Origin: Candidatus Karelsulcia muelleri PSPU
Lineage (GTDB): Bacteria > Bacteroidota > Bacteroidia > Flavobacteriales > Blattabacteriaceae
Direction: 5' to 3'
NCBI RefSeq assembly: GCF_000829155.1
Contig: NZ_AP013293.1
Span: 30,001 to 62,000, forward strand
Length of the DNA: 32,000 nucleotides
Below, one piece after another: positions 15,214-22,338 of this stretch (the first letter of the stretch is position 1; each line of letters starts with the position of its first letter). Both the position numbers and the translations under genes were made by a program. Below the pieces are notes generated by a model. It saw only the letters and a list, made by a program, of their open reading frames with translations, was not told where the DNA came from and made no database searches.

Positions 15214-16017
15214 TTAAATTCCTCCAACTATTTCAAGAATTTCTTTTGTAATTTTTTCTTTTCTTAATTTATTATAAAAAAATAATAATTCATTTTTTAT
15301 TTTAATTCCATTATCTTTTGCTTTATGCATTGCTATCATTCTTGATAAATGTTCTGAAGTTATTGATTCTAAAATAGAATTATATATTTTTATTTTTAAT
15401 ATTTTAGGAATTAAAAATTTTAATATTTTTTTTTTATAAGGTTCAAAAATATAATTGAGATTATATATTTTTTTTTTTTTAAAAGGTAAAATTTTTTTAA
15501 TTGAAATTAATTTATAATTATTATATATAATTTTTATTTCACTAAAAAAACCTTTTAAAAATTTCTTATAAAAAATGTTTACTATTGTAGATAAATTTTC
15601 TTCATTAAGATTATCAATTAATTTATTATTATATAAAAAAATTTGATATTTTTTTTCTAAATATTTTTTTCCAATTTTTCCTATTGGAAATAGATATATA
15701 TTTTCTTTAAAATATTTTTTTTTAATTAATTTTTCTATTGTTTTTAACAAAAAATTATTAAAAGATCCACAAAGACCACGATTTGATGTTATTATTATTA
15801 ATAGTATATTTTTTTTATTTTTTTTTATTTTTATTTTTTTTTTATTTATTAAAATAAAATAAAATTTTTCTATTTTTTTTTTATATAATTTTAAATTGAT
15901 AATTTTATTTTTAAATTTTTTTAATTTTACAGACGAAACCATTTTCATGGCATTTGTCATTTTTATAATAGAACTTACTGTTTTAACTCTACTTATTATT
16001 TCTTTTAAATTAGACAT
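15214..16017 (-). CDS. atpG: ATP synthase F1 gamma subunit
   Basis: 267 aa. The N-terminus is MSNLKEIISRVKTVSSIIKMTNAMKMVSSVKL. TSNRGLCGSFNN is present. The C-terminus is ITKEILEIVGG. Confidence 0.88.
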   Translation of the reverse strand: MSNLKEIISRVKTVSSIIKMTNAMKMVSSVKLKKFKNKIINLKLYKKKIEKFYFILINKKKIKIKKNKKNILLIIITSNRGLCGSFNNFLLKTIEKLIKKKYFKENIYLFPIGKIGKKYLEKKYQIFLYNNKLIDNLNEENLSTIVNIFYKKFLKGFFSEIKIIYNNYKLISIKKILPFKKKKIYNLNYIFEPYKKKILKFLIPKILKIKIYNSILESITSEHLSRMIAMHKAKDNGIKIKNELLFFYNKLRKEKITKEILEIVGGI

Positions 16018-16027
16018 AATAAAAAAA

Positions 16028-17614
16028 TTAATTTTTAAATGTAAAATTATTAATTAATGTTAATACAACATTATTTAATATTGATCTAATTTTATTATTT
16101 AATTTACCTTTTTCTAATAAATTTATTATTTCGGGATAATTTTCATTTAAATTATTTAAATAAATTTTTTCAAAATTTTTAATTTTATTAATTGGTATCT
16201 CTTTAAGAAGATTATTTGTACCAGCATATATAATTGCTATTTGATTTCCTAATCTATAAGGAGAATTAATTGATTGTTTTAATATTTCTATATTTCTTTT
16301 TCCTTTTTCAATAATATTTTTTGTAATAAAATCTAAATCAGAACCAAATTGAGAAAAAGATTCTAATTCTCTAAATTGAGCTTGATCTAATTTAAAAGTA
16401 CATGATATTTTTTTCATTGATTTAATTTGTGCTGAAGCACCTACTCTTGAAACAGATATACCTTCATTTATTGCAGGACGTATTCCTGAATTAAAAAGAT
16501 TGGTTTCTAAAAAAATTTGGCCATCTGTTATTGATATAACATTTGTAGGAATGTATGATGATACATCACCAGATTGTGTTTCTATTATTGGTAAAGATGT
16601 TAAAGAACCCCCACCTAAAATTTTTGTTTTTATACTTTTTGGTATGTCATTCATTTTAGATGCAACTTTGTTATCACTTATTATTTTAGATGAACGTTCT
16701 AATAAACGTGAATGTAAATAAAAAATATCACCTGGATATGCTTCTCTTCCAGGAGGCCTACGTAATAATAAAGATATTTCTCTATATGCTACGGCTTGTT
16801 TAGATAAATCATCATATATAATTAAAGAGGAACGTCCAGTATCTCTAAAAAATTCACCTATTGCCGTACCAGAAAAAGGAGCAAAAACCTGCATTGCAGC
16901 AGAATCTGAAGCATTTGCAGTTAATATAACTGTATATGAGAGAGCCTCATTTTTTTCTAATAATTTAACTATACTAGCTAGAGTTGAAGCTTTTTGACCA
17001 ATTGAGACATAAATACAATAAACTGGATTTTCCATATCCTTAAATTTTTTTTGATTAATTATAGTATCTATAGCTATAGTTGTTTTTCCAGTTTGTCTAT
17101 CTCCTATTATTAATTCTCTTTGCCCTCTTCCTATAGGTATCATAGAATCTATACATTTTATACCAGTTTGTAGAGGTTCTATTACAGGTTCTCTAAAAAT
17201 GACCCCTGGGGCTTTTCTTTCTAATGGCATTAAAAAAACTTCTCCAGAAATAGGTCCTTTTCCATCAATAGGAACCCCTAAACTATTTATAACACGACCT
17301 AACATACCTTCTCCCACATTTATAGAAAATATCATTCCGGTTCTTATAACTTTATCACCTTCTTTTATTCCTTTAAAAGGATCAATTAAGATAATTCCTA
17401 CATTTTCTTCTTCTAAATTAAGAACAATTCCTTTTATTTGATTTTCAAATTCAACTATTTCTCCATAAATTGCATTATTTAATCCATAAACATTAGCGAC
17501 TCCATCTCCTATATTAATTATTATTCCTGATTCAATTATATCATTTTTATAATTAAAATCTGAAATTTTTTTTTTAATTAAAACTGATATATCAGCATAA
17601 TGTTTTTTTAACAT
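16028..17614 (-). CDS. atpA: ATP synthase F1 alpha subunit
   Basis: 528 aa. [20 protein letters not shown] is the Walker A motif. [44 protein letters not shown] is near-invariant alpha sequence. Confidence 0.97.
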
Positions 17615-18137
17615 AAAGATTATTATGTTTTTTTAAAAAATTATTAATTGTAAAATTATAATAATTAAAGTTTTTTTTAATAATAAATCCGCCAATTATA
17701 TTGGTATTAATATAATTATTTATAATTATTGTTTTTTTTTTATAAAGGTAAACTTTTTTTTGTGTTAAAAAAACATTATATATTAATATATTAATTTTTT
17801 CTTTTGAAAAAAGAAAAATATTATCTATTTTATATTTAGATTTAAACAATATAATATAATTAAAAAGAATATTAATAAATAAAAAATTTAAATTATTTTT
17901 AATAATTAAATTAATTAATTTTAAAATTAAAAAGTTTTTTTTTTTAAAAAAAGAACTAAAATATTCATTTTCTAAAAATGAATATTTTATAAAATTATTT
18001 AGAATAGGGTTATATTTTATAATAAATAAAATTTTTTCTATTTCATTTTTTATAAAAATTTCTTTCTTATAAGAAGAAACATAAAAAAAAAAACAATTAA
18101 CATTTCTTTTAACAGAAATTTTATATTTTAAATTCAT
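17592..18137 (-). CDS. atpH: ATP synthase F1 delta (OSCP) subunit, highly diverged
   Basis: 181 aa in the expected position between atpF and atpA. Only the C-terminal OSCP-like [12 protein letters not shown]...INNFLKK is recognisable. It overlaps the atpA start by 23 nt. Confidence 0.62.
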
Positions 18138-18139
18138 TT

Positions 18140-18613
18140 TTAATAAATTATATTTTGGATTAAATCTTTAACAAAAAAATTATTTTTTTTTTTTAAAATT
18201 CTTTCTGAAAGAATAATAGAATTATTTAATATTTCTTTTTTAAATTCTTCTAAAGCCATTTTTTTATTATTATTTATTAATAAATTTGTTTTTTTTATTA
18301 AAGAATCACATATTAAAATTGCTTTTTTTTTAGCTTCTTTTTCAATTTTTTTTTTTCTTTTAAAAGCTTCATTTATAATTAAATTTTTCATTATTTCAGT
18401 TTTTTTTATTATTTGATTTTTTTTATTTTTTATTTCTTTTATTTGATTTTTTTTTTTTTTTGCATCATTTATTGAATCTAAAATAAATTTTTCACGATTT
18501 TCTATAAAATTATTGATTGGTTTCCAAGCAAAACTGCTAAGTAAAATAAATGAAATTAAAAATATTATTGATTGCCAAAATATTAAACCTAAAGCAGGCG
18601 TCATTAAATCCAT
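18140..18613 (-). CDS. atpF: ATP synthase F0 b subunit
   Basis: 157 aa. It has one N-terminal TM segment (LGLIFWQSIIFLISFILLSSFAWKPINNFIENRE) followed by a long charged helix. The operon position fits. Confidence 0.8.
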   Translation of the reverse strand: MDLMTPALGLIFWQSIIFLISFILLSSFAWKPINNFIENREKFILDSINDAKKKKNQIKEIKNKKNQIIKKTEIMKNLIINEAFKRKKKIEKEAKKKAILICDSLIKKTNLLINNNKKMALEEFKKEILNNSIILSERILKKKNNFFVKDLIQNIIY

Positions 18614-18626
18614 ATATCATATTTAA

Positions 18627-18848
18627 TTATTTTAATACGGCTAATAAAGCCGTTACTATTCCAAATAAAGATGCTCCTTCTAGAAGAGCTGCAGATATTA
18701 TCATAGCAGTTTGTATTTTATTTGAAGCTTCTGGTTGCCTTGCTATGGCTTCCATAGCAGAACCTCCAATTTTTCCTATGCCTAATCCTGCACCTACTAC
18801 TGCTATTCCGGCACCTAAAACAGATAATCCGACAAAATTTGAATCCAT
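18627..18848 (-). CDS. atpE: ATP synthase F0 c subunit
   Basis: 73 aa. The Gly-rich helix is GAGIAVVGAGLGIGKIGG. The loop is AIARQPEA. The second helix is MIISAALLEGASLFGIV, carrying the essential Glu. Confidence 0.93.
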   Translation of the reverse strand: MDSNFVGLSVLGAGIAVVGAGLGIGKIGGSAMEAIARQPEASNKIQTAMIISAALLEGASLFGIVTALLAVLK

Positions 18849-18912: not shown

Positions 18913-20388
18913 TTAATCCATTTTCATAGAAATACCTAAAAATAATGCGGATAAAGAAGTGAAAATAAATGCTTGTAAAAAACTTACTAATATTTCTAAT
19001 AAAAAAATAAAAATAGAAAAAGGTATAGATATAATTATTGAAAATAAATTTTTAAAAATAAAAATTAAAGAGATAAAACTCATTGAAATTATATGTCCTG
19101 CTGTAATATTAGCGAATAAACGTATACAAAGAGTTAGAGGACGAATAAATAAACCAAATAATTCAATTGGAATTAATAAAAGTCTTACTAAAAAGGGAAT
19201 CTCTGGCAGAGTCAAAAAATCTTTCCAATAATCTTTGTTAGCACTAAAAATTATTGTAAAAAATACAATTGTAGATAAAGTGAAAGTAACGCTAATATTT
19301 CCTGTAAGATTAGGTCCTGTAGGAATTAAACCTATAAGATTATTTATTAAAATGAAAAAAAATATTGTTAATAAAAAAGGTAAATATAATTTATAATAAG
19401 GTTTTCCTATATTAGGAATAGCTATTTTATCTCTTATAAAAAGAATTATATATTCTAAAATGTTTTGAAATTTTGATTTTGGTTGTTTATTTTTATAAGT
19501 TAAAGATAATTTAAAAAAAATTAAAAATAAGATAATTAAAGATATTATTAATGCAAAAACATTTTTTGTTATAGAAAAATCCAAAGGATTCTTATTAAGA
19601 ATATAACCTTTATCATCTATTTCTAAATATCCTTCTGAATTAGTTTTATATATTTTTTCATTAAATAATCTATAATAATTGTTTTTTTTTAAAACTAAGT
19701 TTTTTCCTTTATCAAATTTTGATGACAAAAATAATATTAATTTTTTATCAAATAAAATTATAGGTAATGGAATAAAATAATCTTTATCTTTTTTTTTAAA
19801 CAAATGCCATTTGTGAGAATCTCTAATATGAGATTTAATAAAAAAAGCTGGATTAAAAATTTCTTTATTATTTATCTTTATCTTTTTATAATTTCTCTTA
19901 TTAGAGATCTCTTTCTTATCTTTATCATTTATTTTTTTATCATTTATTTTTTTATCATTTATTTTTTTATCATTTATTTTTTTATCATTTATTTTTTTAT
20001 CATTTATTTTTTTATCATTTATTTTTTTATCATTTATTTTTTTATCATTTATTTTTTTATCATTTATTTTTTTATCATTTATTTTTTTATCATTTATTTT
20101 TTTATCATTTATTTTTTTATCATTTATTTTTTTATCATTTATTTTTTTATCATTTATTTTTTTATCATTTATTTTTTTATCATTTATTTTTTTATCATTT
20201 ATTTTTTTATCATTTATTTTTTTATCATTTATTTTTTTATAATTTCTCTTATTAGAGATCTCTTTCTTATCTTTATCATTTATTTTTTTATTAAAAAAAA
20301 AATTTCTAGTTTTAGTATCTAAACAAATTAATTGACTAAACCAAAAAAAAAAAATAAATAAAAAATTTAAATTGGTTTTATGTGACAT
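18913..20388 (-). CDS. atpB: ATP synthase F0 a subunit with a repeat-expanded N-terminal extension
   Basis: 491 aa. The C-terminal half (LRLFANITAGHII; ...LLEILVSFLQAFIFTSLSALF) is canonical subunit a. The N-terminus has a hydrophobic segment, then the (KINDK)n array, then FIKSHIRDSHKWHLF, as in Bacteroidota-type AtpB. Confidence 0.9.
   Translation of the reverse strand: MSHKTNLNFLFIFFFWFSQLICLDTKTRNFFFNKKINDKDKKEISNKRNYKKINDKKINDKKINDKKINDKKINDKKINDKKINDKKINDKKINDKKINDKKINDKKINDKKINDKKINDKKINDKKINDKKINDKKINDKKINDKKINDKKINDKDKKEISNKRNYKKIKINNKEIFNPAFFIKSHIRDSHKWHLFKKKDKDYFIPLPIILFDKKLILFLSSKFDKGKNLVLKKNNYYRLFNEKIYKTNSEGYLEIDDKGYILNKNPLDFSITKNVFALIISLIILFLIFFKLSLTYKNKQPKSKFQNILEYIILFIRDKIAIPNIGKPYYKLYLPFLLTIFFFILINNLIGLIPTGPNLTGNISVTFTLSTIVFFTIIFSANKDYWKDFLTLPEIPFLVRLLLIPIELFGLFIRPLTLCIRLFANITAGHIISMSFISLIFIFKNLFSIIISIPFSIFIFLLEILVSFLQAFIFTSLSALFLGISMKMD
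19887..19940. repeat. Left copy of a 54-nt direct repeat bracketing the 15-nt array
   Basis: TATAATTTCTCTTATTAGAGATCTCTTTCTTATCTTTATCATTTATTTTTTTAT is identical to 20238..20291. It contains the 10-nt palindrome AGAGATCTCT at 19903-19912. Confidence 0.95.
19921..20240. repeat. Perfect tandem array, 15-nt unit TTTATCATTTATTTT x 21.3, in frame inside atpB (encodes KINDK/INDKK pentapeptides)
   Basis: Read directly. Positions 19921-20235 are 21 identical 15-mers with no substitution, followed by a 5-nt partial unit. Confidence 0.97.
20238..20291. repeat. Right copy of the 54-nt direct repeat bracketing the 15-nt array
   Basis: Identical to 19887..19940, with an offset of 351 nt (a multiple of 3). 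The palindrome AGAGATCTCT lies at 20254-20263. Confidence 0.95.
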
Positions 20389-20514: not shown

Positions 20515-22338
20515 ATGATTAATAAAAAAATTATAGAAAAAATATTTGAAATCTCAAAAGTAGAAGAAGTAATTAGTGATTTTATTTGTTTAAAAAAAAT
20601 TGGTGTTAATTATAAAGCATTAAGTCCATTTTCTAATGAAAAAAATCCTTCTTTAATAGTCTCTCCATTAAAACAAATTTGGAAAGATTTTAGTTCTGGA
20701 AAAGGAGGAAATGTTGTAAATTTCCTTATGGAATATGAAAAATTAAATTTTTTAGAATCAATAAAATATTTAGCTAAAAAATATAACATAGAAATTATAA
20801 ATTCTTATAAAAACAAATTTATAAATTCTTATAAAGAAAGTATTTTTATAATTAATAATTATGCAAAATTTTTTTTTAAAAAAGAATTAAATTTAAATAA
20901 AAAAAGTATTTTTTTTTTAAAAAAAAGAAAATTTAATTTAAAACAATTAAATAAATTTGATATAGGATATGCTCCATATAATTATAATAAATTTACTAAT
21001 TCAGCTTTAAAAAAAGGATTTAAATTAAAAATTTTAAAAAAAAGTGGATTAATTAATAATAATACAAATAATGATTTTTTTATAAATCGTATTATATTTC
21101 CTATACATAGTATATCTGGGTTAATATTAGGATTTGGAGGTAGATCTTTATCAGAAAAAAAAAATATAGCTAAATATTTAAATTCCCCTGAAAGTGAAAT
21201 TTATCATAAAGGTAATAATTTATATGGAATATATCAAGCTAAAAAATATATATTAAAATATAATTTTTGTTATTTAACTGAAGGATATACAGATGTTATT
21301 TCTATGTATAAATTTGGTATAAAAAATGTTGTTGCTTCATTAGGAACTTCCTTAACTTTAAATCAAATTTTTTTAATAAAACGTTTTACAAAAAATATTA
21401 CTATTATATATGATTCTGATGAATCGGGAATAAATTCTTGTTTACGTTTAATAGATATTCTTCTTGAACAAGAGATTCATATTAAAATTATTTCTTTACC
21501 TTTGAAAGAAGATCCTGACTCTTTTTTTAAAAAAAAAAATTATAATAAAATTATAAATTTTTTAAAAAAAAATACATTTAATTTTATTAATTTTAAATTA
21601 AATTTTTTTAAAAAAAAAAATTCTAAAAAACAAAAAATTATATTTATAAAAACTATTATAAATAGTTTGTCAAAAATATCAGATCTAATAATTAGAGATC
21701 TTTATATAAAAGAAATTTGTATATTATTAAATATTAATGAATCTATTATTTTATCTGAAATAGAATTTTTATTATTAAATAAAAATAAATTTAAAAAAAA
21801 ATCATTTAATTTTATTTTAAATGAATCTAAAAAATTTAAGACTTTAATAGTTTTAGAAGAAAAATTATTACAAATAAGTTTATTATATGGTAATGTAATA
21901 ATTACATCAAATAATTATATTCCTTTAAAAGGAAATAAAAAAATAACAATAATTGAAGAATTCATATTTCAAATGAAAATATATAATTTTTGTTTTTATT
22001 TAGAAAAACATAAATATGTATTTAATGTAATAAATAAAAAATTAAAAAATAAAAAAACTTTTTTTTTTAACAAAATTTTTTATAAAGATCTAATGAAATT
22101 AATATCATTAATTGATCAATATGATTTTGATTTTTTTAATTTAGATAAAAAAAAAATATCTCAATATTTTATTGAAACTTTATTACGATATAAATCGTAT
22201 TATATATCAAATATCATAAAAAAAAAATTTTTTATTTTAAATAGAGAAAAAAAAATAAACAAAAAATTGTTATTAAAAACAATTAATTTAACTAAAATAA
22301 AAAATAATATTAATAAAAAATTAAATATATTAATTTAA
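20515..22338 (+). CDS. dnaG: DNA primase DnaG (zinc-ribbon ligands substituted; TOPRIM intact)
   Basis: 607 aa. The N-terminus KALSPFSNEKNPSLIVSPLKQIWKDFSSGKGGNVVNFLM aligns to the CHC2 zinc-finger region. The TOPRIM motifs are YLTEGYTDVISM and IIYDSDESG. Confidence 0.9.
   Translation: MINKKIIEKIFEISKVEEVISDFICLKKIGVNYKALSPFSNEKNPSLIVSPLKQIWKDFSSGKGGNVVNFLMEYEKLNFLESIKYLAKKYNIEIINSYKNKFINSYKESIFIINNYAKFFFKKELNLNKKSIFFLKKRKFNLKQLNKFDIGYAPYNYNKFTNSALKKGFKLKILKKSGLINNNTNNDFFINRIIFPIHSISGLILGFGGRSLSEKKNIAKYLNSPESEIYHKGNNLYGIYQAKKYILKYNFCYLTEGYTDVISMYKFGIKNVVASLGTSLTLNQIFLIKRFTKNITIIYDSDESGINSCLRLIDILLEQEIHIKIISLPLKEDPDSFFKKKNYNKIINFLKKNTFNFINFKLNFFKKKNSKKQKIIFIKTIINSLSKISDLIIRDLYIKEICILLNINESIILSEIEFLLLNKNKFKKKSFNFILNESKKFKTLIVLEEKLLQISLLYGNVIITSNNYIPLKGNKKITIIEEFIFQMKIYNFCFYLEKHKYVFNVINKKLKNKKTFFFNKIFYKDLMKLISLIDQYDFDFFNLDKKKISQYFIETLLRYKSYYISNIIKKKFFILNREKKINKKLLLKTINLTKIKNNINKKLNILI

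Follow-up and report, generated by a model that had tools for sequence, protein, structure and literature searches.

The window analysed here, 32,000 nucleotides of the genome of Candidatus Karelsulcia muelleri PSPU (contig NZ_AP013293.1, positions 30,001 to 62,000 of the forward strand), comes from the Sulcia symbiont of the spittlebug Philaenus spumarius, which has been deposited as a closed 285,352-bp genome. On its minus strand the window carries atpB, the gene for subunit a of the F0F1 ATP synthase, in which a perfect tandem array of a 15-nt unit lies in frame within the coding sequence (CDS). The features of the locus are collected in Table 1, with positions counted from the first letter of the window.

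A perfect 15-nt array inside atpB

Twenty-one identical head-to-tail copies of TTTATCATTTATTTT occupy positions 19921-20235, a count on which direct reading of the sequence, Tandem Repeats Finder (TRF) and an exact scan agree, and the period-15 identity of the array remains perfect as far as position 20240. TRF assigned the array 21.7 copies with 99% matches and a score of 643, compared with 110 for the runner-up array of the window, and a search for TTTATCATTTATTTT allowing at most one mismatch returned 22 matches where 1.07 were expected, a number reached in none of 100 shuffles. The 22nd match is a lone copy of the unit, designated U0, on the atpB start side of the array. The array starts 153 nt 3' of the atpB ATG and stands at frame offset 0 in the 491-aa open reading frame (ORF), where it is read as (KINDK)21. 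Twenty-one identical in-frame copies in a 491-aa atpB had been reported by a first-pass annotation made from the sequence alone, and this was upheld by the exact scan, TRF and ORF translation, as was the position given there for the array, between an N-terminal hydrophobic segment and the conserved FIKSHIRDSHKWHLF motif. That annotation made no mention of a perfect 54-bp direct repeat, which was found to flank the array on both sides. In gene sense, the layout is leader - U0 (KINDK) - X1 - (U)21 - X2 - conserved domain, i.e. U-X-(U)21-X, where X represents DKKEISNKRNYK encoded by 36 nt, the two copies X1 and X2 being identical in PSPU. With 21 perfect 15-nt units arranged head to tail and in frame, the locus is a coding minisatellite.

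Two other kinds of repeat behaviour were considered and rejected. Hairpin-driven expansion is excluded by the array strand, which adopts no secondary structure (minimum free energy of 0). A phase-variable contingency locus is excluded as well because the unit length is a multiple of three, whereby any change by whole units keeps the frame, and the array lies within the CDS.

The gene carrying the array was identified as atpB. The 491-aa ORF matched PF00119 over residues 280-484 (8e-52, 176.6 bits for a cut-off of 33.9) and TIGR01131 with 131.2 bits (cut-off 102.6), and R423, N427 and Q472 are invariant in a 121-sequence alignment. R423 is presumably the equivalent of E. coli aR210. In the AlphaFold2 model, the C-terminal half matches subunit-a structures of E. 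coli (8dbw_a and 6oqr_a) and yeast (6b2z_M) and also that of chloroplast, so that the canonical subunit-a C-terminal half proposed beforehand is supported by both profiles and by the structural matches. The gene heads an intact atp operon in the order atpB-atpE-atpF-atpH-atpA-atpG, and its product is identical to the protein deposited for PSPU.

The N-terminal half displays the architecture common to Bacteroidota AtpBs, in which a hydrophobic leader and a hydrophilic segment are followed by a DUF8433 domain and the subunit-a membrane domain (PF00119), and the PSPU protein possesses this architecture in full together with its invariant motifs. The DUF8433-type domain opens with an HxxDSHxW motif whose H187, D190 and H192 are invariant in the 121 homologues aligned. 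Its assignment to PF28541 is based on the precomputed Pfam annotation of homologues spanning the region, including a 349-aa AtpB from another assembly (NJPN, see below), as the local Pfam profile search did not report PF28541 for the PSPU protein itself; a sequence search returned no solved structure covering the N-terminal domain. The leader of free-living relatives resembles a cleavable signal peptide (e.g. ...FGFANAASTVT), and the leader of PSPU is nearly identical in two related Sulcia genomes, strain CARI and OZ032149.1. A histone H1-like (HC2) or other DNA-binding reading of the protein was discarded, since the matches to PF07382 (28.7 bits, cut-off 40) and NF038053 (29.5 bits, cut-off 80) are below threshold; they are confined to the array and reflect its Lys-rich composition.

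Table 1. Positions of atpB, of the parts of its repeat region and of the downstream atp genes in the window
Feature	Position	Strand	Remarks
atpB CDS (F0F1 ATP synthase subunit a), 491 aa	18913..20388	-	identical to BAO66221.1 / WP_231850134.1
N-terminal hydrophobic leader, residues 1-28, MSHKTNLNFLFIFFFWFSQLICLDTKTR, signal-peptide-like	20305..20388	-	alignment; AlphaFold2 helix 4-28
Solitary unit U0, KINDK, residues 35-39, likely array seed	20272..20286	-	codon alignment with strain CARI (KINNK there)
X1 spacer, 36 nt, DKKEISNKRNYK, residues 40-51	20236..20271	-	
21 perfect 15-nt units, gene sense AAAATAAATGATAAA, (KINDK)21, residues 52-156	19921..20235	-	
X2, same as X1, residues 157-168	19885..19920	-	
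54-bp direct repeat, distal copy	20234..20287	.	perfect
54-bp direct repeat, proximal copy	19883..19936	.	perfect; site of the only difference from the second assembly
Conserved Bacteroidota-specific N-terminal domain, DUF8433/PF28541-type, residues ~178-270	19579..19857	-	beta-rich; high predicted local distance difference test (pLDDT) score
ATP-synt_A membrane domain, residues 280-484, including invariant R423, N427, Q472	18937..19551	-	
atp operon 3' of atpB	15214..18848	-	matching window ORFs; gene table of the 99.98%-identical locus NJPN02000001.1
atpE	18627-18848	-	
atpF	18140-18613	-	
atpH	17592-18137	-	
atpA	16028-17614	-	
atpG	15214-16017	-	

The array in a second assembly

A second assembly, NJPN02 (GCA_002855775.2), was built with SPAdes from 2x150-bp Illumina reads in a study whose three host insects include P. 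spumarius. The assignment of NJPN00000000 to the P. spumarius symbiont comes from its near-identity to PSPU, the paper naming no host for the accession. To one side of the array NJPN matches the window at 100% of 5,315 nt, and to the other at 99.976% of 4,144 nt, which amounts to one difference in 9,459 aligned bases between the two P. spumarius Sulcia assemblies. Both recovered NJPN contigs (230,708 and 58,220 nt) end within the array: at one end, 14 perfect units are followed by X, U0 and the atpB start, while at the other 9 perfect units are fused to 262 nt of foreign sequence of higher GC content. The presence of the array in another sample of the same symbiont, a check that the first-pass annotation had called for, is therefore established at both contig ends. 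Because both contigs of an independent assembly end inside it, the array is real and longer than short reads and k-mers resolve, and 21 is the count of the PSPU assembly alone.

That the array exists but that 21 is an assembly estimate and not the true or only copy number, with the 54-bp bracketing repeat perhaps partly an assembly construct, has a minor but appreciable probability. A perfect array of 315 bp exceeds the reads and k-mers of short-read assembly, and the SPAdes assembly failed to cross it and ended on one side in a chimeric join, whereas PSPU was deposited as a closed genome, the distal X flank and its adjoining units were reproduced exactly in the second assembly, and a similar perfect array is found in another Sulcia genome, CP029023.1, which consists of a single contig. 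Such an error would touch the number of units only, not the existence or the position of the array, and is compatible with the slippage origin preferred below. The array is possibly a length-variable variable-number tandem repeat (VNTR), NJPN showing only 9 and 14 units at its broken contig ends. When the leader and first repeats were used as a homologue query for contig-end fragments from other spittlebug samples, nothing was returned.

The breaks in NJPN have had consequences for the annotation of the gene, the fragmented assembly having yielded one AtpB of 349 aa with its start in the array and another of 296 aa with a TTG start, in which conserved residues are lost. The array breaks short-read assemblies and attracts chimeric joins, leading to these truncated public AtpBs, which calls for caution on the part of annotators and in comparative studies.

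Two further observations were made on the NJPN contigs. A phospholipase A2 motif like that of parvovirus/densovirus VP1 (Pfam Phospholip_A2_4) is encoded in the foreign end of NJPN02000001.1 (positions 1-262), which represents a chimeric join and is a possible sign of a densovirus, or of an endogenous viral element, in the insect material. The only single-nucleotide polymorphism (SNP), at window position 19908 in X2 (about position 427 of NJPN02000001.1), gives TAT (Y) in PSPU and GAT (D) in NJPN, and through it the two X copies of NJPN differ from each other whereas those of PSPU are identical. This SNP could be a real polymorphism, the result of gene conversion, or an error near the contig end.

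Translation and properties of the insert

The position of alternative start codons was determined by scanning for in-frame ATG, GTG and TTG. The stretch from the array to the conserved motif contains none, and the next after codon 1 is a TTG at residue 196, beyond the invariant H187, D190, H192 and W194. A downstream start, for which this codon is the first candidate, was thus rejected. Conservation of the leader equals that of the core, with 1-3 codon differences in 26 codons relative to CARI and OZ032149.1, and the reading frame is open across 351 nt of repeat even though both other frames of the 15-nt unit hold stops. The conserved parts would accordingly be preserved only if translation begins at the annotated ATG and proceeds through the array. 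An untranslated array, due either to a start further downstream or to a decaying atpB in which the repeat is effectively non-coding, seems hardly credible. The automated AtpB calls of the fragmented assembly, which begin inside or after the array, would speak for it, but they derive from an assembly whose contig stops in the array, and use of the TTG at residue 196 would drop the H187/D190/H192/W194 motif along with a leader that is conserved to the same degree as the core. The open frame, the family-invariant core residues and the intactness of the entire atp operon point in the same direction.

In the AlphaFold2 model, obtained with the 121-sequence alignment, pLDDT is below 50 over residues 74-154 and 157-172, while the beta-rich domain at residues ~190-270 and the membrane helices that follow are predicted with confidence. 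The low pLDDT fits the disorder that the first-pass annotation had considered probable for the insert, although such values are no proof of it. Residues 34-177 comprise 56 Lys, 28 Asn, 27 Ile, 24 Asp and 3 Glu, for a net charge of +31. A charged single alpha-helix of the ER/K type acting as a spacer was rejected, as the AlphaFold2 helix covers only residues 38-80 with a pLDDT of ~48-67 and the remainder is coil below 50.

Sequence and fold matches align residue ~273 of the PSPU protein with residue ~41 of E. coli subunit a, at the start of transmembrane helix 1 (TMH1). Subunit a of E. coli has its N-terminus in the periplasm. Since the homologous region N-terminal of TMH1 is periplasmic in E. 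coli, the beta domain and the array should lie on the periplasmic side in Sulcia as well. A role of the insert as a host-interaction surface, suggested earlier, is consequently unlikely, as by the same homology the segment would face the periplasm.

The insert is located in the leader-to-DUF8433 segment, which is the most length-variable part of the AtpB family. The segment before the HxxDSH motif measures 9-101 aa (median 48) in 111 other homologues, 186 aa in PSPU and 241 aa in OZ032149.1, the leader-DUF8433 segment of PSPU being 2-4 times that of any of the 111 non-repeat homologues. An insert in an essential membrane subunit had been described as unexpected; it is less so in view of the length variability of this segment and of the several gains of repeats in Sulcia atpB genes. 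For the biology of ATP synthase the array is probably a curiosity, but it shows how large an unstructured, highly basic load the subunit-a leader can carry in a genome with almost no spare DNA.

Origin of the array and recurrence of atpB repeats in Sulcia

Comparison with strain CARI, whose AtpB is 88-90% identical to that of PSPU at the protein level, indicates where the array arose. CARI has no array and its linker reads ...DNKKINNKEIEIFTKKEIDKKEIFNPAFF, with KINNK at the position where KINDK of PSPU is aligned. Because KINDK sits where CARI has KINNK, the array unit would be local sequence and not an import, and the layout U-X-(U)21-X would be accounted for if a 51-nt block was duplicated and a 15-nt unit expanded, whichever came first.

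The first-pass annotation had expected a fast-evolving lineage, in which perfect copies could mean that the array is very young. A rapid rate is contradicted by the single difference in 9,459 bases between the two P. spumarius assemblies, by the 96.3% identity of the PSPU and CARI atpB cores, and by the description of Karelsulcia as nearly invariant and changing mainly via slippage in repeats (PMC13345377). An array dating back to the PSPU-CARI split should have accumulated 5.8-10.6 substitutions over its 315 nt, while none is observed; the last homogenisation of the array would therefore be bounded to less than about 0.3-0.5 of the split, and the array would be younger than the split. Great youth is not implied by this bound, and perfect copies do not require it because Sulcia evolves slowly.

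Repeats were also encountered in the atpB genes of sister strains, a comparison suggested by the first-pass annotation, which yielded an array-free CARI and two genomes with period-15 arrays of their own. A scan of genome contigs with the part of the protein that follows the array gave distant Bacteroidota, with no Sulcia among the matches listed. OZ032149.1, a 287,254-bp Sulcia genome whose atpB core is 98% identical to that of CARI, encodes a 546-aa AtpB with an array of ~540 bp in the same linker as in PSPU (period 15, 36.5 units, 81% matches; locus L083, 2654-3195), made up of NKEIDNKKKE x2.5, KKEIYKKKKS x5 and KKEID/KKEKD x about 19. CP029023.1, a 273,631-bp Sulcia genome, carries a perfect 13.1-copy array of TTGTTAAAAACAAAC, translated as (LVKNK)n (100% matches; locus L086, 1467-1662), in the loop after TMH1 of a 403-aa AtpB. 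All three are thus in-frame, Lys-rich and in the same gene; CP029023.1 shares perfection with PSPU and OZ032149.1 shares the linker. On the other hand, the units of both differ from that of PSPU, the OZ032149.1 array is composite and degenerate, and the CP029023.1 loop would be cytoplasmic by E. coli topology. Because the unit sequences differ, the three arrays are considered to be of independent origin.

Shorter repeats occur in the Sulcia of leafhoppers and sharpshooters, where (YK)n, encoded by TATAAA, is present in 1-4 copies directly after the start codon (alignment columns 1-30) and (SN)n, encoded by AGTAAT, varies at the end of the leader (e.g. AGTAAT x2, giving (SN)2, in locus L087, 301-390). 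Among 219 Bacteroidota AtpBs, tandem repeats are limited to Sulcia and are found neither in Blattabacterium nor in free-living relatives. In Karelsulcia of Macrosteles, a 6-bp atpB repeat, ATTACT, lengthened in laboratory lines from 6 units to either 7 or 9; this was among only seven differences across the whole genome, and the repeat alleles reached frequencies of 0.80-0.94 in laboratory populations, 'sweeping toward fixation' (PMC13345377, Mol Biol Evol 2026). The (SN)n repeat AGTAAT is the reverse complement of ATTACT and appears to be the published repeat, the homologous site being its probable place in the published strain. This repeat and the PSPU array are found in the same gene, symbiont genus and N-terminal leader region, and both are in frame and attributed to slippage. 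They differ in that the former has a 6-nt unit in 6-9 copies inside the signal-peptide-like segment, whereas in PSPU a 15-nt unit is present in 21 copies after that segment, and in that length polymorphism was directly observed in the former and is only suspected in the latter.

Taken together, these results are best explained, with good though not full confidence, by a coding minisatellite born of slippage in a permissive segment following the leader, which is fixed or maintained under weak selection in a bottlenecked symbiont and has no specific function. Neutral slippage, which the first-pass annotation had offered as an equal possibility, is thus the favoured reading. In the sequence of events proposed, the A-rich 15-mer AAAATAAATGATAAA (KINDK) would have been duplicated with the following 36 nt as a 51-nt block, and one copy of the 15-mer would then have grown to about 21 units by slipped-strand mispairing during replication. 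Plain slipped-strand misalignment would suffice because the array strand is unstructured, and only in-frame length changes would survive because the gene is essential, the unit is a multiple of three and the other frames hold stops. The array would persist in the one part of AtpB that tolerates changes in length, the hydrophilic segment from the leader helix to the periplasmic beta domain, and the small effective population of a vertically transmitted symbiont would allow a useless or mildly costly insert to be fixed. Its copies would stay identical through very slow substitution combined with continued homogenising slippage, and the copy number in PSPU is probably variable. The predicted product is a stretch of ~140 residues rich in Lys, Asn, Asp and Ile, probably unstructured and strongly basic, which would either make up a tail at the N-terminus of the mature protein or tether it to an anchor helix that is not cleaved off.

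Certain points weigh against this explanation. The translation of the insert is itself deduced from sequence, and the sole other sample with which copy number could be compared, NJPN, breaks in the array. If the domain is periplasmic, a segment with a charge of +31 must cross the membrane contrary to the positive-inside rule, so that the insert may be costly and not neutral, possibly mildly deleterious. Moreover, several Sulcia lineages have gained atpB repeats, of period 15 in three cases, and the 6-bp alleles are sweeping; both facts could reflect selection on length.

Selection on length can take two forms, each regarded as improbable. In the first, the insert is a spacer or tether whose length is under directional selection in the linker or loop, tuning the insertion, assembly or stator geometry of ATP synthase. 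The independent expansions of PSPU and OZ032149.1 at the same site, the array of CP029023.1 in the loop after TMH1, the high frequencies of the 6-bp alleles (PMC13345377) and the restriction of repeats to Sulcia among the 219 homologues are all consistent with such a role, but units, sequences and even sites differ by lineage, and CARI and all inspected leafhopper and cicada Sulcia function with 40-74 aa before the motif. The insert is furthermore of low complexity, modelled with low confidence and devoid of a conserved motif; drift can fix alleles in bottlenecked symbionts, and since the essential domain further downstream allows only in-frame changes to survive, an open frame is no evidence of function. 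In the second form, which is given an equally small chance, the leader and loops of subunit a would constitute a genome-wide hot spot of in-frame expansion in Sulcia in which length changes are selected. Such changes could, for instance, adjust how the ATP synthase is assembled or inserted into the membrane, or make up for a degraded Sec or signal-peptidase machinery. The occurrence of at least three independent 15-nt arrays in Sulcia of different hosts, the rise of 6-nt repeats to high frequency within years in laboratory lines and the absence of repeats from Blattabacterium and free-living relatives are consistent with it. The recurrence of atpB repeats, in combination with the expansions in laboratory lines, offers a concrete test of drift versus selection for slippage alleles in tiny genomes.

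Features of comparable kind are known from other organisms. Coding VNTRs and minisatellites of bacteria, such as multiple-locus VNTR analysis (MLVA) loci and repeat-containing surface proteins, mostly concern proteins that are secreted or exposed at the surface and that evolve under diversifying selection in free-living or pathogenic species. The array of PSPU resembles them in its head-to-tail in-frame units, probably also in a number of units that changes by slippage, and in its potential as a strain marker, but it belongs to a membrane subunit essential for bioenergetics, in an obligate symbiont with a 285-kb genome. Likewise, extremely AT-rich genomes such as that of Plasmodium falciparum encode Lys/Asn-rich low-complexity inserts, which share with the PSPU insert a composition driven by AAA, AAT, ATA and GAT codons, a location in loops or linkers and predicted disorder, whereas the PSPU insert is perfectly periodic and not a ragged tract.

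The gene, the protein and the repeat-containing sequence are already public, and a coding VNTR or low-complexity insert is a well-known kind of feature. Full-text literature searches, whose reach did not extend to the original PSPU genome paper, found no description of the PSPU array, and no description of recurrent 15-nt arrays in Sulcia atpB was found in the literature. P. spumarius is the main European vector of Xylella fastidiosa and its Sulcia is otherwise almost invariant; if length-polymorphic, the array might distinguish maternal lineages of P. spumarius better than any other marker.

Some observations of lesser bearing were also made. In a metagenome scan for three tandem units, only one contig, AT-rich and unrelated, was retrieved (Ga0181380_1018997; locus L085, 1550-1594); the identical 15-mer is repeated there 3-4 times in tandem within an AT-rich coding region of a different kind (…SNDKKINDKKINDKKINDKDNINNNKDDNDDK…), and the match is a chance convergence of AT-rich low-complexity coding sequence, not a relative. 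The AtpB of OZ032149.1, a genome of the spittlebug Sulcia clade nearest to CARI, also has a duplicated TKTINC element. On a 270,201-bp Sulcia contig, AtpB is annotated as a 193-aa 'hypothetical protein' whose sequence no longer follows that of its relatives beyond a KKK run, as would result if atpB had a homopolymer frameshift or contained a sequencing error. The divergently transcribed primase gene dnaG (window 20515-22338) encodes 607 aa in PSPU and OZ032149.1 and 566 aa in CARI (locus L084, 700-2400), and the CARI interval with the lowest conservation relative to the window (86% identity; L084, 1839-2627) runs from the 5' portion of dnaG across the intergenic region into the beginning of atpB. 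Finally, TRF detected a 40-nt repeat of 1.9 copies inside dnaG at 20868-20943.

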